IMG/VR virus record: IMGVR_UViG_3300031134_000466
DNA length: 64,000 nt
Source of the DNA: a virus
Taxonomy: Duplodnaviria > Heunggongvirae > Uroviricota > Caudoviricetes
Strand: one strand, 5' to 3'
Positions 4,244-54,080 of the stretch are shown in pieces. Position numbers and translations under genes: made by a program. Numbering within the stretch: the stretch's first letter is position 1; each line of letters opens with the position of its first letter. The notes under the pieces are model-generated. The model worked only from the letters and a program-made list of their open reading frames with translations, ran no database searches and had not been told where the DNA came from.

Positions 4244-4287
4244 AAATAGTTGAAGCCCTACTGAATTCAGTAGGGCTTCAACTATTT
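4244..4287. terminator. Perfect 22-bp-arm palindrome between convergent genes (bidirectional terminator candidate)
   Basis: aaatagttgaagccctactgaa|ttcagtagggcttcaactattt centred on GAATTC. Confidence 0.5.
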
Positions 4288-5107
4288 AACGACCGACATA
4301 ATGCTCTTTCAAAGCACTCCAAGACATAGGGATGATTTCCAAATCAAGAGTTGACAACTCCAAAAGAGCAAGGTTGTTTTTCGAACCATCCATGTCCAAC
4401 CCGATGCTGTGAAGAGTGTACTCATTCAGTCCATCATTCAGCACAGTTTCATGGTCTGCAAAGAAATGGTAATGACCATGAAGGAATAAGTCAGGTTTTA
4501 CTCCATCAACAGCTTGACGCATCATTGCACGTGACTGGTTTGCGTAACGCATCTCTGTTGGAGACCAGATACCATGGTCTTCTCGATGAGACCCGAACAG
4601 GTTCACCCCTGCAGGGCAGTCATGCGCCAGCATGATGTCAGCATGACCATGCATCACTGTCTTGAAGACATCATCCAGAGTAATCTGCTCAGCCTTCCAC
4701 CAGGTTCTATTCTCGGTACGACCAGTGAAGTCAATGCTGTTTGCTCCTCCAAGAGAGACAAAGGTACGACCATTCCACTCCCACCTTGCTCCACGGTCAG
4801 CTACAAGAATGTGAGGGTACTCAGGGTTGTAACGCCAGCCAGGGAACTGTGACGGTTGCAGCTGGCTGATTTGTACATAGTCCTCATGATTGCCCAAAGT
4901 CACGTACAAAACTTGCCCATTTGCCGCGAGACGTTTGTTAGTCTTGTAAAGATACTTTTGCCCATTGTTACCTGGCCAGAAACCGAAATCACCCAGATGA
5001 AGGATGTGCTTAATTCCAAGCTCAGCAAAACGTGCGATTGCGATACCAGCCCAGCCAGTATTACCATGCCAATCGCCTGCTACGCCAACAATGTCAAAAG
5101 TTTCCAT
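4286..5107 (-). CDS. Calcineurin-like metallophosphoesterase
   Basis: GDWHGN, GDFGFWPG, GNHED, HGHYH metal-ligand motifs in canonical order. Confidence 0.8.
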   Translation of the reverse strand: METFDIVGVAGDWHGNTGWAGIAIARFAELGIKHILHLGDFGFWPGNNGQKYLYKTNKRLAANGQVLYVTLGNHEDYVQISQLQPSQFPGWRYNPEYPHILVADRGARWEWNGRTFVSLGGANSIDFTGRTENRTWWKAEQITLDDVFKTVMHGHADIMLAHDCPAGVNLFGSHREDHGIWSPTEMRYANQSRAMMRQAVDGVKPDLFLHGHYHFFADHETVLNDGLNEYTLHSIGLDMDGSKNNLALLELSTLDLEIIPMSWSALKEHYVGR

Positions 5108-5148
5108 GACACAAGTGTATCACAGATGTTTGAAGAAAAGAACAAGAC

Positions 5149-5838
5149 TTAAGAACGCACAGCGATAGGGTTCAGTAAACCGTCAGTAGTTGGTGCCACT
5201 GGAGGGTTCTGCTCATCCCGTTCGGAAGAATACTTATTGGCGTTATCCATGAAGTCTTGGAAGGTTGGTTCTGAGAAAGCCATGCATGTTTGAGTTGCTC
5301 CCCATTGACTGAAAGCAATCAAACGACCAGAAGGCATGTCAGCATCAGCTGGCCAACTCAGAACAAGTAGCTTATCTTCATGAGTGTCATTCCATTTGTC
5401 AGCAAAGTCTCGAACGAACTCATACCCATCATCAGGGTAGTTAGTGGAAGTCCAAATAACTTTGTGACCTTCCCATTCAGCACGAAGAATCTCTTCGTTA
5501 CTGTAAGGATTACCTCGTGGTTCGATGCTCTCTATAGAGTCAGCGTCAAACGGAGCGGGTGACATGTACCCGTAAGCAGGGATAATCATTGGATGGCGGG
5601 GAACTTCTTCAGTGTAGTCTTCAGGAATGGTCCCGTACTGACCGTCCTTAGGGCTGAACACGAAAGTGTCACCACACTGGGTCAGGATACCGTTAGATGC
5701 GGGCGGAACACTGATACTGCCATAAGCGCTGTTCTGCTCAAGATTAGCTGAAGGTTGACTCAACGCTCCGAAAGCAAGCATAGAAACACCTGCCAGCAGA
5801 AAGCCAGACAAGATAAGTTTAGTTCCACGGTATAGCAT
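5149..5838 (-). CDS. Secreted protein of unknown function
   Basis: N-terminal signal peptide-like hydrophobic segment LILSGFLLAGVSMLAFGALS; no recognisable catalytic motif. Confidence 0.45.
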   Translation of the reverse strand: MLYRGTKLILSGFLLAGVSMLAFGALSQPSANLEQNSAYGSISVPPASNGILTQCGDTFVFSPKDGQYGTIPEDYTEEVPRHPMIIPAYGYMSPAPFDADSIESIEPRGNPYSNEEILRAEWEGHKVIWTSTNYPDDGYEFVRDFADKWNDTHEDKLLVLSWPADADMPSGRLIAFSQWGATQTCMAFSEPTFQDFMDNANKYSSERDEQNPPVAPTTDGLLNPIAVRS

Positions 5839-5887
5839 GATGACGTACTTATCGGCTTACACGTATAACCAGCCTATAATAGAGGTT

Positions 5888-6619
5888 ATGAATGATGTGG
5901 TTAGTGTCAACAGTCTGTTAGTGAAATACGAAGAGTTCACAGCAGTGAAAGATGTTTCTTTTTCCGTGGAAGCTGGTGAAGTGCGTGGTGTTCTGGGCGG
6001 AAACGGTGCAGGTAAATCCACAACCCTTCGAGTCCTTGGTGGAGTCATTAAACCCACCGCTGGTGAAATCACCATTGGAGGAGTGAGCACGAAAAGTTTC
6101 AAAGGCGCCAACAAAGCAAGAACGCTGACAGGGTATTGTCCTGACGTAGGTGGGCTTATTTCAGGAGCCACTCCTTTGGAACATGTTCGGCTTTTAGCTT
6201 CACTCCATCGAGACAAATCGCTGTATGAAAAAGGCCAAGTTGAAATCGAACGATTCAACTTAGCCGAATTTAAAAACACTCCAGTCTCTGGGTTCTCTCA
6301 CGGAATGATGAGACGACTCAGTGTTCTCCTTGCTTACATTTCAGCAGACAAATTACTCATTCTTGATGAGCCTTTCGACGGGGTTGACCCTCTTGGTGTT
6401 GACATTATTAACGCAGCTATCAGTGATGCTCGTGAAGCAGGCACAGCTGTCATTGTTTCCACACATCTTCAGAATCTTCTTGTTGATGTGTCAGACTCGG
6501 TAAACATCATGTCCAAAGGTGAACTGTTGCAGATTATCCCAGCTTCAGAGCTCATCGGTCCTGAAGGTGTGAACCGTTACACAACCATGCTGACTACCCA
6601 CACAGAGAAGAATGCATAA
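5888..6619 (+). CDS. ABC transporter ATP-binding protein (ABC-2/DrrA-like)
   Basis: Walker A GGNGAGKST, signature-like FSHGMMRRLSV, Walker B LLILDEPFDGVD, H-loop STHL; ATG at 5888 preceded by AGAGG; longer ORF begins 5837. Confidence 0.85.
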   Translation: MNDVVSVNSLLVKYEEFTAVKDVSFSVEAGEVRGVLGGNGAGKSTTLRVLGGVIKPTAGEITIGGVSTKSFKGANKARTLTGYCPDVGGLISGATPLEHVRLLASLHRDKSLYEKGQVEIERFNLAEFKNTPVSGFSHGMMRRLSVLLAYISADKLLILDEPFDGVDPLGVDIINAAISDAREAGTAVIVSTHLQNLLVDVSDSVNIMSKGELLQIIPASELIGPEGVNRYTTMLTTHTEKNA

Positions 6620-8191
6620 ATGAAACTGTTCTTTGCTGGGTTGAACGACTCATTCACTTTACTTGCCTTCCGTTTCGCTAACGCAAAACCATGGATGCAA
6701 ATAGCAGGCTTACTCTTCTTGCTTGGTGCAATCGGGGCTATTGCAGCGTCGCTGCAGACAACCTCATTCATCAGAGCAATCATGACAGCAACTCTGCCCG
6801 ATGATCCGACAGCAGAGACAGCCAGAGAGTTACAACAATTCCTGTCTGTATACCTGGAAATGTATACGACAGGTAACATGGAAGTATTCGTAACAGTAGC
6901 TGTAGCTCTGCTGTTAGGTTCCATTATCTTCGTACCGTTCTCAGGGTACGTAATTCACGGTATGGTGTCCCATAGTGAAATGGTTATTGTCAAGAATGGT
7001 GACACTTATAAAATCGGTGACAGTGTTCTGTTCCAGGTTATTTCATCCTTCACCCTTATCCAGCTCACTGGGTTGACCATTGCTGCCCAGCTGATAACTT
7101 TCGACTCGGCCTACCCTTCCTACGCTGTCATTTTTGCTTGGGGTATCTGGGTGTTCATGACAATCGTTACTGCTTTAGTTTCCTGGGTTGTCGAGTTCAT
7201 TTCCCGTAAGTTCGGTCGCAAAATGAGACTGTTGTTCTTAGGCATGTTCGTAGCAGTACTTGGACTTGTTCTGCTGATTGACCCTAAGCACGGAACCACA
7301 TTGTTCGGTGGAGCTAACACCGTGTTCGACTTCTTGAATCAGTTAGCAACTGGTGATGGAAAACTGCTGGTTGCATCGTTGGTCATCATTGCAGGCTTGA
7401 CAGCTGTTGCCATTTCAGCGTTGTCTTTGATGGCGTCACATACATTACAAATTCCAGAACCTTTGACGGTTTCTAAGACCAATGAGAAGCAAATCTCTGG
7501 AAGCTCTGTTCCTTTGAGTCCATTAGTGCTACTTACTCGTTTACTCTTCCGTTACAGCACTGTAACCAAACCAGTCATGACTTCCCTTGCATTCTCTCTC
7601 ATCATTGTTCTTCTACTCAAAGGTGAAAATGCTTTAACCACAACAATGATTGTGTTACCTCTTGCTGTTGGTGTTTCTTTCGGAGCGAACATCTTTGGTC
7701 TGATTAGCGGTTCAATCAACTGGTTGTTGTCAATCAACAAATGGCGGAGCAAGATGTTGAACGCTGGAATGATTGTCATTCTTGCCTCAATCGTCATCAT
7801 CTACGCTATTGTTTACGGCGTTGGTTTAGCTATTGGAACCATCGAATGGGACCAGTTGGTAAAAGTGATTCCCGCACTTATTTCTGTGACATCAGCAACA
7901 ACAATCATCTCCATCTACCTTTCAGTGAAGAAGCCTTTACCATTCTCAGGTAAATCTCGTGAGAACCTCATTTCTTCACCCACAGCTTTGATTGGTTATG
8001 TGTTTGTGCTGCTTGTCGGTGCCGGCGGTGCTGGTAACGTTGCACTCTTTGCCCCATCCCCATCATCATGGATTATCGCAGGAACAACACTGTTCATCAG
8101 CGTCATGAGCTACTTGTTACTTTACCGTACATGGATGAATACTGAAAAGTACACTAAGCGACTGTTGAAAGAAACCATCAACGCCGGTTAA
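6620..8191 (+). CDS. Polytopic membrane protein, probable ABC-2-type permease partner
   Basis: ATG overlaps/abuts the ATPase stop (TAAATG coupling); at least 10 predicted hydrophobic helices. Confidence 0.55.
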   Translation: MKLFFAGLNDSFTLLAFRFANAKPWMQIAGLLFLLGAIGAIAASLQTTSFIRAIMTATLPDDPTAETARELQQFLSVYLEMYTTGNMEVFVTVAVALLLGSIIFVPFSGYVIHGMVSHSEMVIVKNGDTYKIGDSVLFQVISSFTLIQLTGLTIAAQLITFDSAYPSYAVIFAWGIWVFMTIVTALVSWVVEFISRKFGRKMRLLFLGMFVAVLGLVLLIDPKHGTTLFGGANTVFDFLNQLATGDGKLLVASLVIIAGLTAVAISALSLMASHTLQIPEPLTVSKTNEKQISGSSVPLSPLVLLTRLLFRYSTVTKPVMTSLAFSLIIVLLLKGENALTTTMIVLPLAVGVSFGANIFGLISGSINWLLSINKWRSKMLNAGMIVILASIVIIYAIVYGVGLAIGTIEWDQLVKVIPALISVTSATTIISIYLSVKKPLPFSGKSRENLISSPTALIGYVFVLLVGAGGAGNVALFAPSPSSWIIAGTTLFISVMSYLLLYRTWMNTEKYTKRLLKETINAG

Positions 8192-8236
8192 ACGAATGAA
8201 GGCTGGAAGCCATATGACTTCCAGCCTTCATTCGTT
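8191..8236. terminator. 19-bp perfect stem-loop between convergent genes
   Basis: aacgaatgaaggctggaag ... cttccagccttcattcgtt. Confidence 0.5.
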
Positions 8237-8245
8237 TGTTACAGG

Positions 8246-13347: not shown

Positions 13348-13391
13348 AGGAGGGCTGACACTGAATACAAATTTTCAGTGTCAGCCCTCCT
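13348..13391 (+). terminator. 16-bp stem-loop after RNR gene
   Basis: aggagggctgacactg ... cagtgtcagccctcct. Confidence 0.5.
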
Positions 13392-13537: not shown

Positions 13538-14050
13538 TTGCATTCTTCGGACCTTCCTGCTAAGGTAAGGAACATACAGTCCTTATTCGTTCCACCAGGA
13601 AGAAACAAAGCTTTTATGTTTGATGAGATTGGCTCGGCGCCTCAGACCCGGTACAAGCCCCGTGCGGGCGTTGTGCAGTTCCCTGAGAAGACTGCTCTTT
13701 CCAACCGTCAGCGTTCCTACCTGGATATTGCTGTTCGCCTCGCTGAGTCCTCGGATGCAAGCTTCAAGCACGGAGCAGTTATTGTTCGTGGCGGCAGCGT
13801 TCTTGCTGTCGGAGTGAACAAGTGGAAGAATCGTGACCTTCCTCCGACTCCCCCTGATGTGTACAACCCTGACATCACTGTCCACGCTGAGATTGATGCT
13901 CTTTCCCGAGTGAAGGACGCTCGCGGAACCACTGTCTACATTGCCCGAGTCACCCGTAGCGGCGACGAGCGTTTCTCTCGCCCCTGCAACCGTTGCGAGA
14001 AGGCTCTCATCGAGGCTGGAGTCAAGCGGGTCGTCTACACGGTAGGCTAA
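13538..14050 (+). CDS. dCMP/CMP deaminase (CDA fold)
   Basis: Zinc-binding HAE (HAEIDAL) and PCxxC (PCNRCEKAL) motifs with dCMP-deaminase spacing; true start may be an internal Met. Confidence 0.8.
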   Translation: MHSSDLPAKVRNIQSLFVPPGRNKAFMFDEIGSAPQTRYKPRAGVVQFPEKTALSNRQRSYLDIAVRLAESSDASFKHGAVIVRGGSVLAVGVNKWKNRDLPPTPPDVYNPDITVHAEIDALSRVKDARGTTVYIARVTRSGDERFSRPCNRCEKALIEAGVKRVVYTVG

Positions 14051-14127
14051 GACAAATAATTCCTAAGGCTGAACGTTTTACTGATAAAGTAAACGTTCAG
14101 CCTTATCTGTTTAACGAAAGAACCCTG

Positions 14128-14343
14128 ATGACTTGTCCACACTGTGCAATGGTAAACGAATGGCATCAATACAATTGCCCCACTGTACCCAAATTCGAAG
14201 ACATCTATGATGGACACCATTATTGGATTGCCTTCATGGATAGCCCTTATGCTTCATGTGCCTGGTGTGGAAAGATGAAAGGCAAACTTTCGTCAGCCCC
14301 AGATGCCCAATGTCGAGGAATCGTAAGAGTAGGATTACGTTAA
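14128..14343 (+). CDS. Small Cys-rich zinc-ribbon-like protein
   Basis: CPHC ... C ... CAWC arrangement; ATG at 14128 with purine-rich RBS; longer overlapping ORF from 13993 is probably not used. Confidence 0.4.
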   Translation: MTCPHCAMVNEWHQYNCPTVPKFEDIYDGHHYWIAFMDSPYASCAWCGKMKGKLSSAPDAQCRGIVRVGLR

Positions 14344-14388
14344 CTGAAAGAAGCCCTGACTTATAACCAGTCAGGGCTTCTTTCAGTT
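14342..14388. terminator. 20-bp perfect stem-loop between convergent genes
   Basis: aactgaaagaagccctgact ... agtcagggcttctttcagtt. Confidence 0.5.
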
Positions 14389-14394
14389 AATCAG

Positions 14395-18269: not shown

Positions 18270-18294
18270 AAAGCCCTGAACATTGAATTGTAAT

Positions 18295-18327
18295 TTTGTC
18301 CCCCACAAGAACCTTGTGGGGGACAAA
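18295..18327 (+). terminator. 15-bp stem-loop after mazG-like gene
   Basis: tttgtcccccacaag ... cttgtgggggacaaa. Confidence 0.5.
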
Positions 18328-18429
18328 ATACTTTAATAAACTTTCACTCACCCTTGGTTCAAACTGGCTTTTGTCGGAGGTTTCCGATAGAATAAAGTAA
18401 CCCAGTAAACAAGAAAGCAGGCACATTCG

Positions 18430-21147
18430 ATGGCCACCCTCATCGGCGTATCAGGAAAAATTGCGTCAGGTAAAGATTACTTGACTGACAAGCTTGTAAA
18501 CGAACTGAAACGTCTTGGTTTTACCATCGACTACACAGCCTTCGCTGCACCCCTGAAGCAGGAACTCAACGAAATCATCTCTCTGATTCGAGCTTTCCCT
18601 GAACAGGATGAACTGACTCTTTCTTTCTCCATCGCTCGTAATCTGGACATCAACTACGATGATGCTCTTCTGATTGCTACTAATCTGAGAACAGAAGTGC
18701 TTGCAGATGAAACTCTCAACGGTTACTCACGAACAGTCAAAATTCGTGAATCTCTTCAGTATCTTGGTACAGAGATTCGCAGGAAGCAGCGTCCTGAATA
18801 CTGGACTGACTTGTTCTTGAACTTCGTCAACAATTCAGAAACAGATTTCATTTTCGTTTCAGATGCACGTTTTCCTAATGAAATGGACACGGTTGTCGAC
18901 AATCAAGGTGTTGCTCTACGTCTTGACATTCCAGAAGAAGTTCTTGCAGAGCGTCGAAACAAGCGTGACGGCATCAAATACACTGATGAGCAGTTGAATC
19001 ATATCTCAGAAACTGCACTGGATGATTACACCAAATTTGACATGATGATTGGTGTGCAGTTCAACGAACGTGAAATCGTAGAGAATATCCTGAAAAAAGT
19101 TGAACGACTTCAGGAACTTCCTGCAAAAGCTTCTCGCGTCCTGAAAGCCAAAATCGCAGAGCATACACCTTCAGTGTCAGATAAGAAAGATGTTTACCCA
19201 GAGGTGAATTTACCTGAAGGCCAGTACAAAGTGTTGTCTTTGTTTGCAGGTGCAGGTGGATTAGATTTAGGTTTTGAGTTAGCTGGATTAGAAGCAGTTC
19301 ACGGTAAAGAAAAAGTGGACGCTGCTTACAAAGACAAAAAAGCATTTGACGAGCTCCGCAAAGAGAACCTCATTCACACGGTCTACGTAAATGACAACTT
19401 CAAAGATGCAATAGCTTCCTACCGTCAGAACTTTCCTGAAACGTTTATTGACGAACGAGATATCAAAAAAATCAGCAGCTTCCCTGATGCAGACCTTCTG
19501 TTAGGTGGATTCCCTTGCTTCCCTAAAGGAACAGGTGTAGCTACAGAGACAGGTTACAAAAACATTGAAGATGTCGAGAAAGGTGATTTTGTTCTCACTC
19601 ATGAAGGTCGTTACCGTGAAGTAACAGACACCATGACACGCAATGTGAACAAATCAGCCACTCTACATGCTTACGGTTCTCTTCCTTTGGTCTCAACGGT
19701 GAATCATCCTTACTGGGTGAAAGAAACTGTCGATTCTGAACCTAAATGGGTTCATGCTGAGAACATTCAGCCAGGTTGGTTTGTGTCTCATCCAATCAGC
19801 ACATTCAGTACAGATGAAGTAACCGAAAAAGAAGCCAAGTTTGCTTACTTAGCCGGCGTCTTCGCTCAGTGTGGTACAAAAACTTTGAACGACGAGCACA
19901 AGCCAAGCTATCTCACTCCTTACAATGATGAGGAGTTCCTGGCTTTGCTGGCTGAAATTGATGCTGTCTGTTCAAAAGAAGGCAAAAACGTCATCGTCCA
20001 CAGTGAACAGCTGAACAAGATGATGAAATTGTTCGGAACTACCAAATGGAACAAAGTCATTCCTGAAGAGGTCCACCAGAAACCACGAGCTTGGCAGAAA
20101 GCTTTCCTTGACGGCTTCCTGTTCCACAACTCTGACCAGGAAGTGCACAGCAAGAACTTGGCTGTTGGCGTGGCTCGAATTATTCGTAGTTTGAACCCTA
20201 CACAGGATGTTATCGTGTCCTCACCCAAATACAGTTCCTGGATTGTAACTGCAACTGACACTACCGTAGCTCATCATGATGACAACTATGTATGGGTTCC
20301 TGTGGAGCGTTTGCAAGTAAGAAACGAAATGGGAGTACTTCCTGTTTACGATATTACTGTAGCCGAAGACGAATCATTCGTAGCAGATGGATTTGTAGTT
20401 CACAACTGCCCTGGCTTCTCAGCAGCAGGTCTTCGCATGTTAGATGACCCTCGCAACTTCCTGTACCTGCATTTCGTACGAGCTGTTGTTGACGCTCAAC
20501 CAAAGATTTTCGTAGCAGAAAACGTAAAAGGTCTACTCACTCATGGTCAAGGTGAAGCTTTCAACCAGATAGTCGAAGACTTTGCAGCAGCAGGTTACAC
20601 CATCTACTACAAGCTGATGAAAGCAATTCAGCATGGTGTACCTCAGATGAGAGAGCGATTGATTATTGTTGGTGTGCGAAACGACATTGATTTTGAATAC
20701 CAGCATCCTGCTGCCACTCATGGTGAAGGTCTACTTCCATACAAAACTCAAAGAGACGCTTTCTACGATTTGAGGGACCTGAACGATGAACACTACGAAG
20801 GAGACTTCTCTTCTCGCTACCGTTCCAGAAGGTTCAAACTGGACTGGGATGTACCGTCAAAGACCATTTTGGCAACAGGGCGGCACCTGCCTTTGCACCC
20901 TGACGGAGTGCCTCAGGAGAAGCTGGAGCAGGACTTGTGGAGTTTAGACGCTGCAGACCGTAGATTCACTGTAAGAGAAGCTGCACGAATCCAGACATTC
21001 CCTGACTGGTATGATTTCGTGACAACCTCTCGCGGAACAACCAACACAGTCCTGGAGAAACAGTACCGTCAGATAGGTAACGCTGTTCCTGTCGAACTGG
21101 GACGAGTTGTTGCTGAACCTATTGTTCAGTTCCTGAAAAGTCTGTAA
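18430..21147 (+). CDS. Fusion protein: T4 gp1-like dNMP kinase (N-terminal) + DNA (cytosine-5)-methyltransferase interrupted by an intein
   Basis: N-term GVSGKIASGKDY...AAPLKQEL and SDARFPNEMD match dNMP-kinase P-loop and DxR motifs; MTase motif I FAGAGG, motif IV GGFP-C...PGFSAAG (split by intein), ENV (motif VI), QMRER (VIII), GNAVPV (X); one continuous frame. Confidence 0.85.
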   Translation: MATLIGVSGKIASGKDYLTDKLVNELKRLGFTIDYTAFAAPLKQELNEIISLIRAFPEQDELTLSFSIARNLDINYDDALLIATNLRTEVLADETLNGYSRTVKIRESLQYLGTEIRRKQRPEYWTDLFLNFVNNSETDFIFVSDARFPNEMDTVVDNQGVALRLDIPEEVLAERRNKRDGIKYTDEQLNHISETALDDYTKFDMMIGVQFNEREIVENILKKVERLQELPAKASRVLKAKIAEHTPSVSDKKDVYPEVNLPEGQYKVLSLFAGAGGLDLGFELAGLEAVHGKEKVDAAYKDKKAFDELRKENLIHTVYVNDNFKDAIASYRQNFPETFIDERDIKKISSFPDADLLLGGFPCFPKGTGVATETGYKNIEDVEKGDFVLTHEGRYREVTDTMTRNVNKSATLHAYGSLPLVSTVNHPYWVKETVDSEPKWVHAENIQPGWFVSHPISTFSTDEVTEKEAKFAYLAGVFAQCGTKTLNDEHKPSYLTPYNDEEFLALLAEIDAVCSKEGKNVIVHSEQLNKMMKLFGTTKWNKVIPEEVHQKPRAWQKAFLDGFLFHNSDQEVHSKNLAVGVARIIRSLNPTQDVIVSSPKYSSWIVTATDTTVAHHDDNYVWVPVERLQVRNEMGVLPVYDITVAEDESFVADGFVVHNCPGFSAAGLRMLDDPRNFLYLHFVRAVVDAQPKIFVAENVKGLLTHGQGEAFNQIVEDFAAAGYTIYYKLMKAIQHGVPQMRERLIIVGVRNDIDFEYQHPAATHGEGLLPYKTQRDAFYDLRDLNDEHYEGDFSSRYRSRRFKLDWDVPSKTILATGRHLPLHPDGVPQEKLEQDLWSLDAADRRFTVREAARIQTFPDWYDFVTTSRGTTNTVLEKQYRQIGNAVPVELGRVVAEPIVQFLKSL
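19516..20406 (+). mobile_element. Intein (297 aa) with LAGLIDADG homing-endonuclease motifs, inserted at the catalytic Pro-Cys of MTase motif IV
   Basis: Starts with Cys (CFPKGTGVATETG...GDFVL block A), block B TVNH, two dodecapeptide motifs (YLAGVFAQCGT; FLDGFLFHNSD), ends VVHN followed by +1 Cys; excision restores GGFPCPGFSAAG. Confidence 0.8.
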
Positions 21148-24260: not shown

Positions 24261-24300
24261 GGCGGTCCAGGATGCTAATTGTCCTGGGCCGCCCTTGTTT
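24261..24300 (+). terminator. 12-bp stem-loop (one G.U) followed by T-tract
   Basis: ggcggtccagga ... tcctgggccgcc cttgtttt. Confidence 0.5.
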
Positions 24301-26083: not shown

Positions 26084-26095
26084 ATAACCAAACTG

Positions 26096-26136
26096 TTGAA
26101 GCCTCCCACCTGTAGTAATAAGGTGGGAGGCTTCAA
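26096..26136 (+). terminator. 16-bp perfect stem-loop
   Basis: ttgaagcctcccacct ... aggtgggaggcttcaa. Confidence 0.5.
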
Positions 26137-26336
26137 CCATGCTAAGATGTATGAAACCCCATACCTAACGAAAGAAATCTATGGACGAGTATTCAGCTTT
26201 TGAGAAACGAAACAAAGTAATTCGAGTCGTCGCAATTGTCACAGTAATAGCTGTTGCCGGCTCAGGAATCGCAGCAGCCTTCTTCGGAGCATTCTAAAAA
26301 TACCTGATGAGAGCGTCTTTTTGATTCAAAATTAGA

Positions 26337-30049: not shown

Positions 30050-30460
30050 ATGACTAACGAAAACCTGACCATGCATGATGTCGAAGTTGATGACCAAGTA
30101 GAAATTATTTTCACTAACGGTGACCGAATCACAGGGACTGTGACTTCTCCTAACATCAGCTCCACAATGCGTATCCAGACCATTTTTGCTGGGGACACAT
30201 ACATCTCTTTGCACAACGTAGACAGCTACACGGTAAAGAAGGTCCACGACAAGCAGGAACCTTTCGAACCTGAAGGTGAAGGAGAAATCTGGGGTTACAT
30301 CCAGTACCAGGTTCGAGGTTTCGCTGCAATCAACAAGAAGCAGGTCCACCGTGACGCTAAGGGGCTATGGCACATGGATGGCAAGTCAGGAACCTGGGCG
30401 AGACTTCAGTTCAACATTGGTCAGGACTTCACATTTGTTCAGTTGGTGGAAGCTAACTGA
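30050..30460 (+). CDS. Hypothetical protein
   Basis: ORF only. Confidence 0.45.
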   Translation: MTNENLTMHDVEVDDQVEIIFTNGDRITGTVTSPNISSTMRIQTIFAGDTYISLHNVDSYTVKKVHDKQEPFEPEGEGEIWGYIQYQVRGFAAINKKQVHRDAKGLWHMDGKSGTWARLQFNIGQDFTFVQLVEAN

Positions 30461-30499
30461 GGTTGGTAGCATATGCTTACATCTTGTTAGAGATTAGGT

Positions 30500-32486: not shown

Positions 32487-32542
32487 CTTAACTAAGTAAC
32501 GGGAACCCATAGATATTACTGGGTTCCCGTTACTTAGTTAAG
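32487..32542. terminator. 23-bp perfect stem-loop between convergent genes
   Basis: cttaactaagtaacgggaaccca ... tgggttcccgttacttagttaag. Confidence 0.55.
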
Positions 32543-34143: not shown

Positions 34144-34350
34144 ATCGCTGAAAATGACTTTACCTCAAAAAAGCTGTTAAACTTATGGGGCAGTAGAAAA
34201 ACGGCAAGCGTCATCAAATTTCTTTTGAAGAAAATACCTTTTAGTTCGGTTAAGGATGAAAATCGTCCGATAACATTAAAAGGTTAGTTCTTCTTGATTC
34301 GGGGGATAAAGAAAACTGATGACATGTGTAACTTTCTTCCGTTACACACT

Positions 34351-34392
34351 GCGGGGCCCAGGTACTAAGTACTTGGGCCCCGCATCTTTTTT
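34351..34392 (+). terminator. GC-rich 16-bp stem-loop followed by T6 run (classic intrinsic terminator)
   Basis: gcggggcccaggtact aa agtacttgggccccgc atctttttt. Confidence 0.55.
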
Positions 34393-38231: not shown

Positions 38232-39276
38232 ACAAACCAAATCTCAGCATAGTCTAAACCGCAGTATAGTGGTGTCATTGTTACTCGTCCTGGCGTTAGT
38301 TGCTGCTTTGTTCGTCAAAGATGGCATCGCTCAGCAAACAAAAGTAAACAATGTTGACGGCTACTATTTAGCTGATTCCTCTTTCTACCATCAAAAAGGA
38401 ACCAACCCAGGTGAGGAAGTCTACTCTGGTCCAGAGTCAATTCTTTCTTTTTCATTGACTCATTCACATGCGTTACTCGTTACCTCTGCCCAGAAGATAC
38501 TACTTGTAGATTTAGCTTCAGGTAAATCTGAGGACATCACTACTCCTGGTTGTTCTGTACTTCAGACCAGCTCTGCATTCGACAGGTATTTTGTGTACCT
38601 AAACTCTTGCGATACAGACACAACAGCCCAACGTTTTGTTTCATATGACACTCAAACGAATAAGGAAACAACAACAGAAGTACAAGCATCCTCACAATGG
38701 CAAGTGAACCCTAAAACAGGAAACGTTGTATACCAGGCTGGTTTGACCAGTACTGTTTATTCAGGAAACATGGATAAGTCTGGCCAATGGCAACCGTTTG
38801 TGCAGTTAGGTCAGATGGGTTATCTCGGAGGTTTCTACAACAAAGGGAACACTTTGTTCTTATGGGGAACCGAAGCTGATGCTTCAACCCCAATCTCGTA
38901 TAACCTAAACGACTTGAATACTGTGAAGCTAGTTTTACCTGAAGCTGCAGATTCTAAAACACAGATAGCGTCAGGAACAACTGCTATTGATAGAACCAGT
39001 ATTTTGTGGGCTGTGACCGCTTATTCTCCAGAAGAAGATGCATATTACGAGTACGTCATCAAAGACACAAATCTTGGAGCTACTTTACTGGTTGACTTAT
39101 CTACTCTCGGGTATACGTTAGGTAACCGATTATCGTATGATGCAAAGAATGATGTAGTTGCAATTCCGGTGACACAGTACAACGGCGGGGATGTGTCTAC
39201 ACTGTTTGCTGATGCAGAAACAGGAAAAATTCTTTACCAGTTGCAGTTCACTACAGCGTTTCAATTTGCACCTTAA
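38221..39276 (+). CDS. N-terminally anchored extracytoplasmic protein, unknown function
   Basis: Single N-terminal TM (IVVSLLLVLALVAALFV); overlaps upstream gene by 11 nt. Confidence 0.45.
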   Translation: MSTEQTKSQHSLNRSIVVSLLLVLALVAALFVKDGIAQQTKVNNVDGYYLADSSFYHQKGTNPGEEVYSGPESILSFSLTHSHALLVTSAQKILLVDLASGKSEDITTPGCSVLQTSSAFDRYFVYLNSCDTDTTAQRFVSYDTQTNKETTTEVQASSQWQVNPKTGNVVYQAGLTSTVYSGNMDKSGQWQPFVQLGQMGYLGGFYNKGNTLFLWGTEADASTPISYNLNDLNTVKLVLPEAADSKTQIASGTTAIDRTSILWAVTAYSPEEDAYYEYVIKDTNLGATLLVDLSTLGYTLGNRLSYDAKNDVVAIPVTQYNGGDVSTLFADAETGKILYQLQFTTAFQFAP

Positions 39277-39277
39277 A

Positions 39278-39326
39278 TTATGAAAGCCGACCCGACAGAA
39301 ATTCTTTGTCAGGTCGGCTTTCATAA
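39278..39326. terminator. 15-bp stem-loop between convergent genes
   Basis: ttatgaaagccgacc ... ggtcggctttcataa. Confidence 0.5.
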
Positions 39327-39327
39327 T

Positions 39328-40449
39328 TCAGTCAGCAGTTTTTCCGTTCAAGTTCCAGAATGGCTTCTCAAACTCAGGCTGAATCATTTTCCAGATGATG
39401 TCAGAGATTTTCTTCTCAGACCTGGTATCAAAATGACCTCCGCTGTGACGAGAGAATAACAAACCAGTAATGCGTTTGTCTTCTTTCTGTACAGCTGCAG
39501 CGTAGTCCTTCTGAGTGTATCCTTCAGGAAGTTCAGAAAGAATACGGTTGTAAGTTTCCTCAACTGTTGCACGCAATTCAGCATGCTCTGCAAGTAGTCG
39601 GTCACGAGTTGTTTCGACATACTCAACGAACTCATCAGGGAGACCAACAATCCATGAAGTGAAGTCACCGTCAGCTACAAGCAGCTCCCAGATGCGACGC
39701 GAAGAAGCACCTGTGATGACACGGTGAAGCTGAACGTAGTCATCCTGTTTCACTTTCACTCGAACATCACTATCCAGGAAGTGAACAACAACGCCTTCTT
39801 TGTTCTCACGACCAGGAGCGGCCAAAGCTTCAGTAAGGCTGTTGTATTCAAACTGCTCAACCTTCAACCAAGTCCATTCATCAACCTGTGATGCTGGTAC
39901 AGAGCGACCTGTTGCTGTGTTCACTCGGGCAATCAAGATGAGGTCATCCAAATCACCGTAGTTAACAACGATACGGTTTGTAGGGTAGATGATTTCCCAG
40001 ATGTAAGTTTCACCAGCAAGTGGCTCCCATTTTCCGTCGTACAGCTCCTGGTAACGTGCTGTGGCATGCAGAGCCTGCTCAGAGCTGAATGAACCTCGTG
40101 TGGAGATGTTCAGTCGACCAGTTTCAGGGTTTACATATGAAACACCCATAGAACCATCTGCTTTGTCTGTGACAACGATAGGTCCAGTCAGTGCATCCTG
40201 AGGAACATCTGGTTCGCCGTGGTTAAAGAACTTACCAAGAGGGCGGGAGACAATCTCCTGGGTGGAACCGTCAACGATAAGTCCTCGTGAAGCTAATGTT
40301 GCAGCGTTCCAGGCTCGGTCAAACTGGCATACCTGTGAGTAGTCAAAGATAGCCAGGTCAAGCGTAGGGTGAACCTGACGATTGATGTGCTTGTTCTGGA
40401 ATTCAGCTGCCCAAAGTTCAGCAGGAGCGATATCGTAAATGTGTACCAT
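39328..40449 (-). CDS. ATP-dependent RNA ligase (Rnl family), paralog 1
   Basis: Nucleotidyltransferase motif I TDKADGSMG (KxDG), same order of downstream motifs as ORF 54122. Confidence 0.7.
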   Translation of the reverse strand: MVHIYDIAPAELWAAEFQNKHINRQVHPTLDLAIFDYSQVCQFDRAWNAATLASRGLIVDGSTQEIVSRPLGKFFNHGEPDVPQDALTGPIVVTDKADGSMGVSYVNPETGRLNISTRGSFSSEQALHATARYQELYDGKWEPLAGETYIWEIIYPTNRIVVNYGDLDDLILIARVNTATGRSVPASQVDEWTWLKVEQFEYNSLTEALAAPGRENKEGVVVHFLDSDVRVKVKQDDYVQLHRVITGASSRRIWELLVADGDFTSWIVGLPDEFVEYVETTRDRLLAEHAELRATVEETYNRILSELPEGYTQKDYAAAVQKEDKRITGLLFSRHSGGHFDTRSEKKISDIIWKMIQPEFEKPFWNLNGKTAD

Positions 40450-41178: not shown

Positions 41179-41213
41179 TTATGTTGTAGTTTTTTACAGA
41201 TACTACAACATAA
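41179..41213 (+). terminator. 12-bp AT-rich stem-loop
   Basis: ttatgttgtagt ... actacaacataa. Confidence 0.4.
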
Positions 41214-42706: not shown

Positions 42707-42720
42707 GAATAGCAAATAAG

Positions 42721-42751
42721 AAAAACCTGAGTCACCACGACTCAGGTTTTT
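42721..42751 (+). terminator. 13-bp stem-loop followed by T-rich tract
   Basis: aaaaacctgagtc accacg gactcaggttttt cttattt. Confidence 0.55.
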
Positions 42752-42761
42752 CTTATTTAAT

Positions 42762-42792: not shown

Positions 42793-44685
<1,893 letters not shown>

Positions 44686-44697: not shown

Positions 44698-44741
44698 TCT
44701 GAAAGGGACGCTACTGTGATAATGGTAGCGTCCCTTTCAGA
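44698..44741 (+). terminator. 17-bp perfect stem-loop after dnaK
   Basis: tctgaaagggacgctac ... gtagcgtccctttcaga. Confidence 0.5.
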
Positions 44742-44761
44742 TTGCATTTAAACGATAAAGT

Positions 44762-44795
44762 AGAAAGGCCCTGACTAAAGAGTCAGGGCCTTTCT
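44762..44795. terminator. Second 15-bp stem-loop between dnaK and convergent gene
   Basis: agaaaggccctgact aaag agtcagggcctttct. Confidence 0.45.
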
Positions 44796-44797
44796 AC

Positions 44798-45427
44798 TTA
44801 GTTCTTTTTAGCTATGTATTCCCAGGTGATGATACCTTTTTCACAAGTCAGAACATAATGGCTATTGTACCATTCTCCACCTGCGTTGTAGTTATATTCA
44901 TGATAACCAGTTGTGTATCCTTTTGCTACCCATGTGTCTGCAGATGGAGGAACATCTTGATGAGGTCGAGCGTCAGAAGGCTGGAAGCTTTGTACCTGAT
45001 TGATTCGTAACTTCAATTCCTTATGAAGTTCTTCGAACTTGATAGCGACAGACTTACGTCCCTGTTCATCTTCATTCACATACAGAGAAGTATCACTTTC
45101 GTTCCAACCATTGCTGTCACCTAACATGCTCAGGCGGTAAGAAATAACCACAGTAACCTGAAGTTCTGCTCCTGTGCGTTGAGCTTCAAAGATTTCATCT
45201 AAAGTCAATGCAGTGACTACTCGTGTAGCTTCAGGAACTGGGATAAGCTTAGCCCATTCGCCATGAGCGTAATGAGCAAGTTCTCTTTTAGGTAATGTGC
45301 CGAGGACATCAGCTATTTTAGCTGGTCGTTTGTTCGTTTCTTTAGCCATTAGGTGTTTCAACCATTCTGTCTTGGTATCCAAGTATATCAAACAAATTAG
45401 GTAAAAGGCATAAATAGTGTGGAACAA
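44798..45427 (-). CDS. Hypothetical protein
   Basis: ORF begins with TTG; internal ATG at 45349 (MAKETNK...) may be the true start. Confidence 0.4.
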   Translation of the reverse strand: MFHTIYAFYLICLIYLDTKTEWLKHLMAKETNKRPAKIADVLGTLPKRELAHYAHGEWAKLIPVPEATRVVTALTLDEIFEAQRTGAELQVTVVISYRLSMLGDSNGWNESDTSLYVNEDEQGRKSVAIKFEELHKELKLRINQVQSFQPSDARPHQDVPPSADTWVAKGYTTGYHEYNYNAGGEWYNSHYVLTCEKGIITWEYIAKKN

Positions 45428-47154: not shown

Positions 47155-47248
47155 CGTTAGATATAGTAGTGCAGGTAAAACTGTGTTATCTAACTCCTTT
47201 ATTGCGCCGCCTTCTCACTGAGGCGGCGCAATTGGTTAAATTGCCGAC

Positions 47249-49519: not shown

Positions 49520-50176
49520 ATGAGAATAGTAGTAGCTGATTGTTCAGTCATTTACACAGGAAGAGGAGACACCCGTCTTCCCCGAGCAGTCCGAGCGATC
49601 ATTGTCAAAGATGATGGTTCAATCTCAGTGCATAACGACAAAAGTAACAAACCTTTGAACTATATGGGTAAAGGTAACGAGCTTTCAGAAGTTGAGCTGG
49701 AAGATTGTAAACTATGGTTCTTTGACACAAGGCAAGAAAGTCTCCGCATTACTTTACATGAAGTTATTTCTGACACTGATTTCCTCCTTGATCGAAACGA
49801 TGAAGGACTGATCCGTGACGGCACAGAGAAGCAGCTGCAGGCTTGGTTAGCAGAGAACCCAGAAGCATTAGGTGAAGGCTATACTTTCGTTCAAAGAGAA
49901 TATCAGACAGGTGCAGGAGCTGTTGATTTGTTAGTCACTGACCCTGAAGGTAACCCTGTGGCGGTAGAAGTGAAACGAGTGGCCATGATTAACAGTGTGA
50001 GCCAGACACAACGTTATGTTGAGTCGATGAAAGAGGACCCTGAGTTTGCCAATACCACTGGCATTATCGCCGCTTTAGACATTCGACCTAACACTGTGAA
50101 GTTAGCGGACAAAAAGAAAATCCGCTGTGTCACTTTACCAACATGGTGGCGTGACCCAGCGGATACTTCAATGTAA
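49520..50176 (+). CDS. NucS/EndoMS-like PD-(D/E)xK nuclease
   Basis: N-terminal beta-rich region then GAVDLLVTDPEGNPVAVEVKR (D...EVK) C-terminal RecB-like core. Confidence 0.5.
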   Translation: MRIVVADCSVIYTGRGDTRLPRAVRAIIVKDDGSISVHNDKSNKPLNYMGKGNELSEVELEDCKLWFFDTRQESLRITLHEVISDTDFLLDRNDEGLIRDGTEKQLQAWLAENPEALGEGYTFVQREYQTGAGAVDLLVTDPEGNPVAVEVKRVAMINSVSQTQRYVESMKEDPEFANTTGIIAALDIRPNTVKLADKKKIRCVTLPTWWRDPADTSM

Positions 50177-51706: not shown

Positions 51707-51717
51707 GTCAGCATGAG

Positions 51718-51752
51718 TAAAGCCCCGAATCGTAACTTGATTCGGGGCTTTA
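51718..51752. terminator. 14-bp stem-loop between convergent genes
   Basis: taaagccccgaatc ... gattcggggcttta. Confidence 0.5.
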
Positions 51753-51757
51753 CCTGT

Positions 51758-52729
51758 TTAAATTTCTCGCAGCTGCACAATTGTCAGTTCAGTTGCTTCA
51801 CCTTTTTTATTGACCCTTTTGACTTTCACATCATTAGCAACAACTTCGAATTTTGCACCACGAGGAATGATGAACTCATACTCTCTTGGACCTTGCGATG
51901 AAATAGCTGTGATTGGGGCTCCACTTTTTGTAAGAATCTGTAAAGAAACATTGATGTTGTCTTTGGAAGGTAAATCTTGAGGATTCAAACTTGTCGATAA
52001 GAAGAATTTAGGTTCGTAAGTGCTACCAACAGGGAAATGTTTGTCGAGGTTTTGAGCGTCATCACTTGAATGATATCCTTTTTCATCATAAAGATGATGA
52101 CGGCGGTAAACCATCACGCCTTCTTCTGCTGGTTCGTGTTTAGCAAAAGCATCATCCAGGATAGTTACAGCTGCATCCAACGTTTCAGGTGCAACATTTT
52201 TTGCGTACGGATTTGTTGAAGCTGAAAGATGGCCGTTGATGTCAGCATAGCCATCTTCTGAATACCAGCGAAGAGTAGCTATTTCAGTATCATCCAGTTT
52301 GGCACTCCAGTTTTGGGAATCTGCCATGCTGTTCAACAGGTCAGCATGTTTGTAATGCATCTCTTCAAGAGTGTCACCAGTTTCGAAAAACGTCGGAGAA
52401 GTGTAAGCAGCTTTTTGTGCTTTTTTGTGGGTGATGACTTTACGATCCGCAACAGCAGCTAATCTTCTGGCTCGTTCTTGAGAAAGCGCTTCGTATTCTT
52501 CTGCATGCCATTCCTGCGTTGGATTCTTTTTGATCTGTCTTTCCAAAGACTTTAGATAAGCTGGTGTTAGTTTGTACTCTGCTTCAGCTTTTCTTCTTAC
52601 CGCTATTAGCTTCTCAAGCTCTGGGTCTTTGCGGTTGTCCATGAAAGCACTGAGAACCGCTTGATGAGCTTTAGCGTAGGTGGCTGCAGCATGAGCTGAA
52701 CAACGGGGACCAGGTTTTGGGTAACACAT
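51758..52729 (-). CDS. Mono-ADP-ribosyltransferase (R-S-E class) with N-terminal MCYPKPGPRCSAHA module
   Basis: Arg motif MVYRRH, classic STS motif FLSTSLN, catalytic PREYEFIIPRGAKFEVV (E-x-E); N-terminal 100 aa paralogous to ORF 30500. Confidence 0.7.
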   Translation of the reverse strand: MCYPKPGPRCSAHAAATYAKAHQAVLSAFMDNRKDPELEKLIAVRRKAEAEYKLTPAYLKSLERQIKKNPTQEWHAEEYEALSQERARRLAAVADRKVITHKKAQKAAYTSPTFFETGDTLEEMHYKHADLLNSMADSQNWSAKLDDTEIATLRWYSEDGYADINGHLSASTNPYAKNVAPETLDAAVTILDDAFAKHEPAEEGVMVYRRHHLYDEKGYHSSDDAQNLDKHFPVGSTYEPKFFLSTSLNPQDLPSKDNINVSLQILTKSGAPITAISSQGPREYEFIIPRGAKFEVVANDVKVKRVNKKGEATELTIVQLREI

Positions 52730-52811: not shown

Positions 52812-53015
52812 ATGCCTGGAATGATGGCTTCCAACAAGAACCGTGCCGTGAACAACGTTGACAGCACTATGTTCGATGATGGTTTCTGGCAGCACCGACA
52901 CTTCAAAGGTAAGCGTCGCACTGGAGCTGCAACTGGTGGTCGCGGTTGGCGTCGAGCTCTTCGCAAGAAGGAGAAGCAGAGCGTCAAAAAGGACATCCGT
53001 AACGACGAAATGTGA
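52812..53015 (+). CDS. Small highly basic protein (67 aa)
   Basis: Lys/Arg-rich (GKRRTGAATGGRGWRRALRKKEKQ); followed directly by a terminator hairpin; alternative antisense ORF exists. Confidence 0.3.
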   Translation: MPGMMASNKNRAVNNVDSTMFDDGFWQHRHFKGKRRTGAATGGRGWRRALRKKEKQSVKKDIRNDEM

Positions 53016-53021
53016 ACTGTA

Positions 53022-53065
53022 AATAGGGTCAAAATCCTGATAAACTCAAGGATTTTGACCCTATT
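53022..53065 (+). terminator. 16-bp stem-loop followed by T-tract
   Basis: aatagggtcaaaatcc ... ggattttgaccctatt ttgtt. Confidence 0.5.
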
Positions 53066-53146
53066 TTGTTGCTGGATACCGTGTTCTGTGGTAGACTTGA
53101 GTAACATACAACGCAGCATCACACAGTTCACTGAAAGGGTTCCATT

Positions 53147-54028
53147 ATGACTACAAATTTAGGTTTCAGAGCTGAGGTCTCATACGACGCAGTGAAAGAT
53201 TTGACTCTCATGAGTTCATCATCTTCAGACTTCTCTTCTCCTCTTAACTTTGCCCTCACACGAGGTTCTGACGAGGACAAAGCCGTCAGGGCTCTCCTCG
53301 AAGACCAGGGACGAGTAGAATTCGTCAAGTCAGCGGTTTCTTTGAACAACCTTTCCCAGGTAGGTTCTTTCGGTGTTAGAACAGACGGTAATCCTTCCCG
53401 AGCTGACCTGGGTGTTCACAAGAACCTCACTATCGCAGGTAAAGATGGTTCAGGTGTTCTGAACTTCGTCAGAAACTATCTTCTTTGGGCTTACGCTACA
53501 AACACTCGAATCTATGCTGTGAACGCTCCAGCTGACATGTACGGTGCTGTGAATTACTTGCGTACTGACAAACTGGTTCGTATCGACTCAGGAGATGAGC
53601 CGAACATTGATTCCATCTGGAGTCAGTACGATGCTGATGTTGCTGCTGGTCGTCCTGTGCTTGTGTTGGTGAACAGCATTGGTGATATCGAAGACCAGGA
53701 TGAGGTGGTTGCAAGTTTCCTTGCCCATGTTGACACACGCAAGTTCGAAGTTTACGCTCTTTCTTTCTCAACATTCCAGGAAGAGCTTCCAGAAGACACT
53801 CATTACGAGAACTTCTTCTGGCGAGTTGGTGTTGACGCTGAGCACACTACAGGTTTCATTGGTGACACTCTTCCTGAGATTGCATCTTACATGATGAAAG
53901 AACATGTAGGAATTCCTCATGAGAACCCTCGTGGCGTGCTGTGGTTAAACAGAAATGCTGAGCGTTACGAACGAGTTATCACCTATGTGGTGCCTCGTCG
54001 TTTCTGGGAAGACAGCCTGAACTTCTGA
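53147..54028 (+). CDS. Hypothetical protein
   Basis: ORF only. Confidence 0.5.
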   Translation: MTTNLGFRAEVSYDAVKDLTLMSSSSSDFSSPLNFALTRGSDEDKAVRALLEDQGRVEFVKSAVSLNNLSQVGSFGVRTDGNPSRADLGVHKNLTIAGKDGSGVLNFVRNYLLWAYATNTRIYAVNAPADMYGAVNYLRTDKLVRIDSGDEPNIDSIWSQYDADVAAGRPVLVLVNSIGDIEDQDEVVASFLAHVDTRKFEVYALSFSTFQEELPEDTHYENFFWRVGVDAEHTTGFIGDTLPEIASYMMKEHVGIPHENPRGVLWLNRNAERYERVITYVVPRRFWEDSLNF

Positions 54029-54037
54029 TTTCAGACA

Positions 54038-54080
54038 ATTGAGGGACCTGTGCTTGTAATTAAAGTGCAGGTCCCTCAAT
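54038..54080 (+). terminator. 13-bp stem-loop followed by T5 (intrinsic terminator)
   Basis: attgagggacctg ... caggtccctcaat tttttg. Confidence 0.55.

Follow-up and report, generated by a model that had tools for sequence, protein, structure and literature searches.

Why should a viral genome set unusually long and perfect palindromes between its genes? The question is raised by a 64-kb stretch of DNA catalogued among the Caudoviricetes (IMG/VR record IMGVR_UViG_3300031134_000466), which was analysed over its whole length and is called the window here. A first-pass annotation, made from the letters alone, had described such palindromes at almost every convergent gene junction and had taken them for bidirectional factor-independent terminators. 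We find 22 stem-loops across the full window and favour, at a probability of roughly 60%, the reading that they are intrinsic terminators of the factor-independent type, which set the 3′ ends of transcription units. The palindromes are real. Most likely, they halt transcription from both sides where groups of genes end, and they would be an ordinary kind of element taken to an extreme.

The window was searched for perfect inverted repeats, and every gene junction was folded as RNA, with a free energy (ΔG) of −27 kcal/mol or lower defining a strong hairpin. With loops of at most 12 nt, there are 18, 17, 15, 12 and 6 perfect inverted repeats with arms of at least 10, 12, 15, 17 and 20 nt, respectively; 40 dinucleotide-preserving shuffles gave means of 0.5, 0.05, 0, 0 and 0. 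The long perfect palindromes first described are thus borne out, 15 having arms of at least 15 nt against none in the shuffles. All seven of the annotation's example sites are perfect or near-perfect inverted repeats, with ends off by 1–2 nt at most. They lie inside its range of 4244–54080, but hairpins at 1532–1571 and 63174–63224 fall outside it. Non-coding DNA makes up 9% of the window, yet it holds 17 of the 18 perfect inverted repeats with arms of at least 10 nt. The 22 stem-loops have arms of 12–24 nt (median 18), a median loop of 8 nt and a median total length of 44 nt. Their ΔG runs from −27 to −47 kcal/mol, about −35 being typical, with a weaker exception at 41179–41213 (−18 kcal/mol). 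RNA folding had been named as a check by the annotation; folded singly, the hairpins reach −29 to −46 kcal/mol with z-scores of −7.5 to −14.3, and they are stable on both strands where both were tested. Rfam covariance models run over the whole window gave no match at gathering thresholds.

Placement was assessed on a map of 66 genes, plus two small open reading frames (ORFs) added later, that was based on long ORFs, a codon-usage score and Pfam matches. Hairpins occupy 9 of the 12 convergent junctions, 12 of the 43 tandem junctions and none of the 12 divergent ones (convergent versus divergent, Fisher p = 3e-4). "Almost every" convergent junction therefore stands as nine of twelve on this map. 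The 12 hairpins at tandem junctions, on which the annotation had not remarked, show that hairpins tag gene 3′ ends generally. The convergent junctions without a hairpin are 21147/21148, 50176/50178 and 27676/27746; at the first two, the stop codons abut and leave no room. Most hairpins start 0–15 nt past a stop codon. Arms contain or overlap a stop codon at 4286–4288 (that of the minus-strand gene, within the arm of 4242–4289), 8189–8191, 14341–14343 (a TAA within the arm of 14340–14390), 29657–29659, 39274–39276, 39328–39330 and 44798–44800. With 22 hairpins for about 68 genes, they are found only at the ends of multi-gene units. Genes on the same strand overlap by 4 nt in five cases and by 11 nt in three; together with a GAAAG motif described below, these overlaps indicate bacterial-type operons.

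Arm architecture and evolution among relatives

When the 3′ arms are aligned on the loop, the inner stem is GC-rich (60–87%), with a peak of 80–87% GC at 7–9 nt from the loop, and the outer 3′ arm is 50–67% T at positions 11–23. The 10 nt past the GC core hold a mean of 5.2 T versus 2.7 expected, and most tails begin with TT. The annotation had remarked that many of the hairpins lack a T-tract. There is indeed usually no run of T beyond the palindrome, but a T-rich stretch, with at least 5 T in the 10 nt past the core, lies within the 3′ arm in about 16 of the 22 hairpins, the tracts being interrupted. By complementarity, the outer 5′ arm is rich in A. The convergent palindromes carry a mirrored A-tract, their A-rich and T-rich outer stretches pairing perfectly, and T prevails over A in the outer 3′ arm in 8 versus 1.

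Three other lineages, at about 90–92% nucleotide identity, cover window positions 29.6–54.6 kb. Divergence from the window at third codon positions is 0.21 in one of them (L091) and 0.20 in another (L092). For the hairpin arms it is only 0.08 and 0.07, respectively, and for the loops 0.49 and 0.43, about twice the synonymous-site rate. Other intergenic DNA (29662–50721) diverges by 0.07 and 0.05, and such low values outside the hairpins would imply dense regulatory constraint. Double-sided changes that keep pairing number nine among the 130 pairs of seven hairpins. Six of them are in 39276–39328, in L091 and L092; two are in 32487–32542, together with a loop inversion; and one, a change of G-C to C-G, is in 44758–44799. 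At 44698–44741, the arms are invariant among strains and the loop differs at 4 of its 10 bases. Overall, 99.2% of the alignment cells are paired, compared with 36–48% pairing and 0–1 compensatory pairs when the structures are slid by 1–3 columns. Pairing is lost at two pairs in some strain, and one of these closes the loop.

More distant relatives (L086, L093, L094 and L096, at 67–80% protein identity) carry different palindromes of 19–24 nt at most convergent junctions; the divergent junctions of these four loci have no palindromes. Among the junctions shared with the window, those after Band_7 and after DnaK bear palindromes that differ, and the convergent Band_7 junction of the 80% relatives has one unlike the window's 32487–32542. 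Purifying selection thus acts on pairing: the compensatory pairs, the 99.2% pairing and the different palindromes at the same junctions all argue that pairing is selected while the sequence is free, and the feature, as judged from these alignments, is family-wide. By comparison, 41 kb of the cultured relative Paradiddles, a Streptomyces phage, contain just six palindromes of 10–11 nt, and palindromes are nearly lacking from two dnaK regions of high-GC actinobacteria.

A separate observation concerns the junction after NucS. In the 80% relatives, the final codons of NucS, those for its acidic tail, contain a palindrome with 14-nt arms, exactly where two convergent genes meet without a spacer (L086 15283–15320, L088 7154–7191, L094 3908–3945). 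The corresponding window junction, 50176/50178, has no equivalent.

The loops behave differently from the arms. Between strains that are 90–98% identical, they are reverse-complemented in 4–5 of 9 orthologous hairpins, with the arms unchanged, at 8210–8217, 32510–32519, 39298–39306, 42734–42738 and possibly 44777–44780. Exact reverse complements are seen at 42734–42738 (ACCAC to GTGGT) and at 8210–8217 (CCATATGA to TCATATGG); the loop of 42714–42758 is exactly inverted in L003, L004, L005, L091 and L092, and that of 8190–8237 in L001. Inverted loops call for arm-to-arm exchange or template switching in DNA. The comparison points to flip inversion or template switching as a frequent event at these sites, and such exchange may help to keep the palindromes perfect. 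Hence, the palindromes are also dynamic in DNA. The annotation's suggestion of recombination hotspots gains limited support from these inversions; there is no evidence for larger palindrome-driven rearrangements.

Termination weighed against other roles

How would termination account for elements of this form? Each has an inner stem, rich in G and C and some 10 bp long, and after it on the transcribed strand a U-rich stretch, which is the outer half of the 3′ arm. A polymerase would first copy the A-rich outer arm and the GC core, then the loop, then the core's second half. With the T-rich outer arm in the active site, where it forms a weak rU:dA hybrid, the GC-rich hairpin would close, and the transcript would be released within that arm. 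At tail-to-tail junctions, a single DNA element would stop polymerases from both sides. Its U-rich tail would be mirrored by an A-rich stretch across the stem, adding 7–12 complementary bases to each arm, and G·U pairs would be forbidden, because G·U on one strand is a C·A mismatch on the other. Mirrored tails and disallowed wobbles would thus explain the length and perfection of the palindromes, and with them the over-long look of two-way terminators. After release, the A-rich and U-rich stretches would pair and lengthen the stem to as much as 24 bp, and the full stem at the RNA 3′ end would block 3′-to-5′ exonucleases. We infer that RNA polymerase, probably that of an actinobacterial host, terminates at the hairpins and that the hairpin stabilises the transcript; a role as RNA-stability elements, which the annotation had suggested, is plausible.

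The annotation's interpretation is partly supported overall. Its core, the bidirectional factor-independent terminator, is the best-supported reading; it is backed by position, by a GC core with a T-rich tail, by the mirrored A-tract and the compensatory changes in the stems, and by the absence from divergent junctions, features from which termination itself is predicted. Further points favour it. The hairpin at 54037–54081 contains U·G and G·U wobbles, which can pair on the sense strand only. The sense strand also folds better at 24261–24293 (−29.6 versus −21.7 kcal/mol), and ΔG favours it at 47201–47232 as well. A start signal often lies downstream of a hairpin, such as the TGTTAG at 54107 after 54037–54081, which we likewise count in favour of terminators.

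Several observations weigh against this reading. Of the 22 hairpins, only about 8 were picked up by a simple terminator scan. About 6 of the 22 have no T-rich tail (those starting at 18293, 26095, 47201, 63174 and 13348, and 34350 on its minus strand). Over all 22, the polarity of T over A in the outer 3′ arm does not reach significance (13 versus 5, p = 0.10), and tandem junctions show none (5 versus 4). Many one-way hairpins are perfect palindromes too, beyond what a two-strand constraint explains, and the stems (44 nt, about −35 kcal/mol, loop of 8) are far above the size of Streptomyces terminators. Finally, a ribosome halted at a stop codon inside a stem would melt the hairpin base; stems that start at or in stop codons therefore suggest a polymerase running well ahead of the ribosome. 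If termination is nevertheless the function, the window yields 22 clean transcription-unit boundaries, supported by evolution, for a virus that is uncultured, and a source of very strong, sequence-diverse two-way terminators that are possible parts for Actinobacteria.

Could the hairpins act on RNA that polymerase has already read through? The duplex would then be cut by an RNase III-type enzyme or would block 3′ exonucleases, as a 3′-end processing or stability signal; we consider this unlikely, if worth keeping in view. The 3′ inverted repeats of chloroplasts follow the same logic of a protected 3′ end. Perfect stems of 20–24 bp are good double-stranded RNA and RNase III substrates, much longer than termination needs, the roughly six hairpins without a U-rich tail would suit such a role, and the genome is of giant-virus size. 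Each hairpin's sequence is unique and its structure alone conserved, as in Mimivirus (PMC4402537); under the hairpin rule of the Mimiviridae, palindromes mark the site of mRNA cleavage and polyadenylation (PMC4402537). However, the polarity of GC core and T tail in the convergent hairpins is predicted by termination and superfluous for a nuclease that recognises duplex. The hairpin rule places a palindrome after nearly every gene of monocistronic transcripts, whereas here 22 hairpins serve about 68 genes and stand only at unit ends, and five 4-nt start/stop overlaps indicate bacterial-type operons. Moreover, no RNase III or poly(A) polymerase gene lies within the 64-kb window. A bolder version, which we hold to be doubtful, is that in near-megabase actinophage-like viruses a unique perfect palindrome of 15–24 bp ends every transcription unit, as an obligatory 3′-end signal read by a viral or host RNase III-type enzyme or another factor, with template-switch "self-correction", seen as loop inversions, keeping the palindromes perfect. 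If true, it would be the bacterial-virus counterpart of the Mimiviridae rule, with an independent origin in giant viruses of bacteria and of eukaryotes.

The loop inversions in 4–5 of 9 cases, which need exchange between arms in DNA, also raise the question of whether the palindromes serve the DNA itself, as cruciform or hairpin sites for recombination, replication or packaging that are merely tolerated at gene ends. The frequent perfection of one-way hairpins and a loop divergence twice that of synonymous sites fit this idea as well. Yet none of the 12 divergent junctions, which should tolerate insertions equally, has a hairpin, and there is no common sequence for a protein to recognise. Because of that absence, the GC-core/T-tail polarity and the sense-only wobbles of 54037–54081, the last two being RNA features, we place selection at the level of RNA and regard a DNA-level role as improbable. 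Protein operators were rejected, the sequence being different at every site. It is hardly credible that the hairpins belong to a mobile or repeated palindromic family spread between genes, similar to repetitive extragenic palindromes (REP), bacterial interspersed mosaic elements (BIME) or miniature inverted-repeat transposable elements. Several do have short GAAG- or GCCC-type cores in common, and an arm base of 14–15 nt, TTAAATAGTTGAAG, is common to the window's 4242–4289 and a non-orthologous L086 junction. But the longest substring shared by any two of 21 hairpins is 9 nt, when random 45-mers of the window reach 10 nt, so the family resemblance among stems that the annotation had thought worth looking for is not there. 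No arm recurs elsewhere in the window, and orthologous positions are kept and evolve by substitution; we therefore rejected a repeat family or mobile element. As an observation of its own, TTAAATAGTTGAAG is identical at window 4242–4255 and L086 7211–7224 (also in L093 and L094), with no homology in the flanks; it may be shared by chance or as a transferred terminator module.

The individual hairpins and the genome that carries them

Seven of the palindromes at convergent junctions are classed as two-way. Perfect arms of 24 nt are found at 4242–4289 (junction 4235/4286; ΔG −35/−36 kcal/mol, z −12) and at 29609–29662 (29579/29657), where they read AAAAAGC...GCTTTTT and give the highest stability (−44/−46 kcal/mol). 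Those at 8190–8237 (8191/8246) and 14340–14390 (14343/14395; −38 kcal/mol, z −12) have perfect arms of 20 and 22 nt, respectively. The hairpin at 32487–32542 (32480/32546), 3′ of the Band_7 gene, has arms of 23 nt; that at 39276–39328 (39276/39328), between a 351-aa ORF and an RNA ligase gene, has arms of 22 nt touching both stops; and that at 51717–51753 (51706/51758), between the PNKP and ADP-ribosyltransferase genes, has arms of 15 nt. Convergent junction 34143/34404 carries a hairpin at 34350–34384 with arms of 17 nt and one G·T pair, followed on the plus strand by TCTTTTTT. Junction 44685/44798, 3′ of dnaK, carries two: 44698–44741 with arms of 17 nt, and 44758–44799 with arms of 19 nt (GAAAGGCCC...GGGCCTTTC).

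The remaining hairpins are assigned to the plus strand. Tandem junctions carry them 3′ of an SNF2-like gene at 43–1527 (1532–1571; arms 16 nt, loop 8 nt, −28 kcal/mol), the gene for the ribonucleotide reductase small chain (13348–13391; arms 18 nt, weak T tail), a MazG-like gene (18293–18329; arms 17 nt, no T-rich tail), an NT5C-like gene (24261–24293; arms 13 nt, then CTTGTTTTCT), a 590-aa ORF (26095–26137; arms 17 nt, weak T tail), a DnaB_C-like gene (47201–47232; GC-rich arms of 12 nt, no T-rich tail), a 293-aa ORF (54037–54081; 19 pairs, then TTTTGT) and an NAD synthase gene (63174–63224; arms 21 nt with one mismatch, no T-rich tail). The tandem hairpin at 42714–42758 lies upstream of dnaK and has arms of 20 nt (AAGAAAAACC...GGTTTTTCTT). 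A hairpin with 15-nt arms stands at 14064–14105, 13 nt past a dCMP deaminase gene (13538–14050), and is separated from the convergent 14340–14390 by a small Cys-rich ORF (14128–14343). The weaker hairpin at 41179–41213 (arms 12 nt, loop 11 nt) follows a 119-aa gene that is missing from L003 and L004. The hairpin at 53021–53066 (arms 18 nt) begins 5 nt past a 67-aa ORF (52812–53015). We had considered it as an operator in a divergent region, which was ruled out because it follows this small ORF, a gene also called in L004.

Signals were found on the start side as well. The motif TGTTAG lies 7–12 nt, mostly 9, before the start codons of genes that head transcription units, at eight sites versus about 0.1 expected: 23416, 28524, 30485, 36510, 48639 and 54107 on the plus strand, and 32876 and 52739 on the minus strand (also at about 20465 in L086). 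Upstream of starts, GTTAG shows a 9-fold enrichment. Should TAGnnn serve as a −10 element, the A of ATG would be the first transcribed base, and the mRNAs would be leaderless, as is common in Actinobacteria. GAAAG is enriched 6-fold before start codons (12 window genes, −20 to −9), where the classical GGAGG is seldom found. In Gram-positive-type 16S rRNA, the 3′ end contains CUUUC, to which GAAAG is complementary, so GAAAG may be a ribosome-binding motif. Apart from the terminator-like hairpins, a fold at 30446–30514 forms on the plus strand only (ΔG −27.0 versus −12.4 kcal/mol on the minus strand), with GGTAGCATATGCTTA pairing with TTAGGTATGTGCTACC. It encloses a TGTTAG motif and the ATG of gene 30500–31465, and from the folding model it looks like a regulatory fold that would sequester the start site, not a terminator.

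What kind of genome carries these hairpins? The window is 45% GC (44–48%), and no tRNA genes or Rfam families were found in its 64 kb. Its gene content is virus-like, with ribonucleotide reductase, two dCMP deaminases, MazG, a YqaJ-type exonuclease, RNase H and NucS (49520–50176), in addition to PNKP, two T4-type RNA ligases, PARP, three ADP-ribosyltransferases, NAD synthases and many ORFs without a known family. The base composition, the lack of tRNA and Rfam matches and the virus-like genes rule out an actinobacterial or Firmicute chromosome. The annotation's wording, "as used in Actinobacteria", accordingly does not fit the sequence itself, but its host is probably actinobacterial. DnaK (42826–44685), full-length and alone, without grpE or dnaJ beside it, is 99–100% identical to proteins of metagenome contigs, about 80% identical to proteins on contigs of 0.83–0.88 Mb and 73–77% identical to high-GC actinobacterial DnaK, mostly of Microbacteriaceae; it is probably a host-derived chaperone gene. 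A DnaK search of genome contigs missed the closest relatives and served mainly to confirm the actinobacterial affinity. Among phages, the nearest homologues come from actinophages: RNA ligase is 44% identical to that of Arthrobacter phages and PNKP 47% to that of Streptomyces phages, and the exonuclease is nearest to those of Propionibacterium and Gordonia phages. Streptomyces phage Paradiddles also has a module of band-7, RNA ligase, polynucleotide kinase, dCMP deaminase, phosphoesterase and DnaQ-like exonuclease. NucS is typical of Actinobacteria and Archaea.

The related contigs are very large. One of 788,683 bp (L092, Ga0308164_10000007) encodes an RNA ligase 97% identical to the window's, and others, from several samples, measure 880,409 and 880,970 bp (L086/L087), 883,042 bp (L094) and 878,612 bp (L095). 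The 0.88-Mb contigs with the 80% DnaK were considered as a host chromosome and rejected, being syntenic with the window. The common region lies at differing coordinates among the 0.79–0.88 Mb contigs, which suggests that the replicons are complete circular or circularly permuted genomes. The window is, to judge from its genes, probably part of a very large virus (about 0.8–0.9 Mb) of Actinobacteria. We infer the term "phage", as no capsid or terminase gene was seen, and the replicons may be cellular or plasmid in nature. Pfam likewise gave no capsid or terminase match in L096, the 67% relative, and scans of IMG/VR, from which the family is absent, gave only relatives at about 35%. Nothing informative came from megablast of 24 kb against phage genomes, from PHROGs with ten proteins without a Pfam family or from PDB sequence searches with four large ORFs; look-ups of window-edge proteins added only 1–2 kb. 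The largest phage genome described is 735 kb (PMC7162821). If the replicons are phages, their 0.79–0.88 Mb exceed that record. The genome context is a more surprising result than the hairpins.

Because of its Hsp70, PARP, SNF2-like gene and genome size, a eukaryotic giant virus (nucleocytoplasmic large DNA virus) with a hairpin rule was also considered. It is disfavoured by the 4-nt and 11-nt overlaps, the actinophage homologues of RNA ligase, PNKP and exonuclease, and the Paradiddles module; GAAAG, as a ribosome-binding motif, may disfavour it further.

The gene content has features of its own. A single 905-aa ORF (18430–21147) joins a dNMP-kinase-like N-terminus to a C5 cytosine methylase split by a Hint/intein domain. 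Genes at 26372–27676, 28539–29579, 30500–31465 and 51758–52729, within 26 kb, comprise a PARP catalytic domain with WGR, two clear ADP-ribosyltransferases of the exoenzyme type and one weak, sub-threshold match (28539–29579). Two NAD synthases and a cytidylyltransferase-family gene, possibly of the NMN-adenylyltransferase type, lie at 56409–63158. By their predicted functions, the window genes would represent a large investment in NAD and ADP-ribosylation.

Comparison with known terminators and palindromes

Bidirectional Rho-independent terminators mapped by Term-seq in Bacillus, Enterococcus and E. coli combine a GC stem and a U-tract with a mirrored upstream A-tract, which is the mark of such two-way elements (PMC12207403). 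They share with the window's hairpins both this layout and the sites, between convergent genes and at operon ends, as well as compensatory stem evolution (PMC12207403, PMC5381666); bidirectional terminators are under stronger constraint than one-way ones (PMC5381666). The dimensions differ. In most bacteria, Term-seq terminators measure 20–28 nt at −13 to −17 kcal/mol, with a median loop of 4 nt (PMC12207403), compared with medians of 44 nt and 8 nt and about −35 kcal/mol here. Stem length thus exceeds that of usual intrinsic terminators, in line with the annotation's remark: the stems are about twice as long and twice as stable. The tails have an interrupted 5–6 U in 10 versus 7–9 in 10, and stop codons often lie in the stems.

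Actinobacterial intrinsic terminators come closer. Their hairpins are the longest and the most stable, with only 3–4 U in the 10 nt downstream, and the terminators of Streptomyces measure 32–35 nt at −24 to −26 kcal/mol, with a median loop of 4 nt (PMC12207403). The window resembles these and the "I-shaped" terminators of Actinobacteria in its long, very stable hairpins, few downstream U and probable host. However, the published sets derive from genomes of 70% GC and reportedly have no A-tracts, whereas the window is 45% GC and most of its hairpins have a T-rich arm with a mirrored A-tract and stems that are longer still. Only about 6 of the 22 lack a U-rich trail, so the hairpins as a set are not of this U-tract-less kind.

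The REP and BIME elements of enterobacteria are also intergenic palindromes, often between convergent genes, and can stabilise upstream mRNA. Unlike the hairpins described here, which have no sequence in common, REPs form a sequence family of hundreds of similar copies. The hairpin rule of Mimiviridae and Pithovirus resembles the window in that a very large viral genome has palindromes, each of its own sequence, at the ends of transcripts and keeps their structure, not their sequence. That system, however, operates in a eukaryotic host, marks nearly every monocistronic gene with AT-rich hairpins and relies on two enzymes, a poly(A) polymerase and an RNase III-like nuclease of the virus. In the window, hairpins with a GC core and a U-rich tail stand only at the ends of operon-like units, among bacterial-type gene overlaps and actinophage-like genes. 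Taken together, the element most likely belongs to a known kind, that of bidirectional intrinsic terminators, but is unusually long and stable and lies in a new and remarkable genome.

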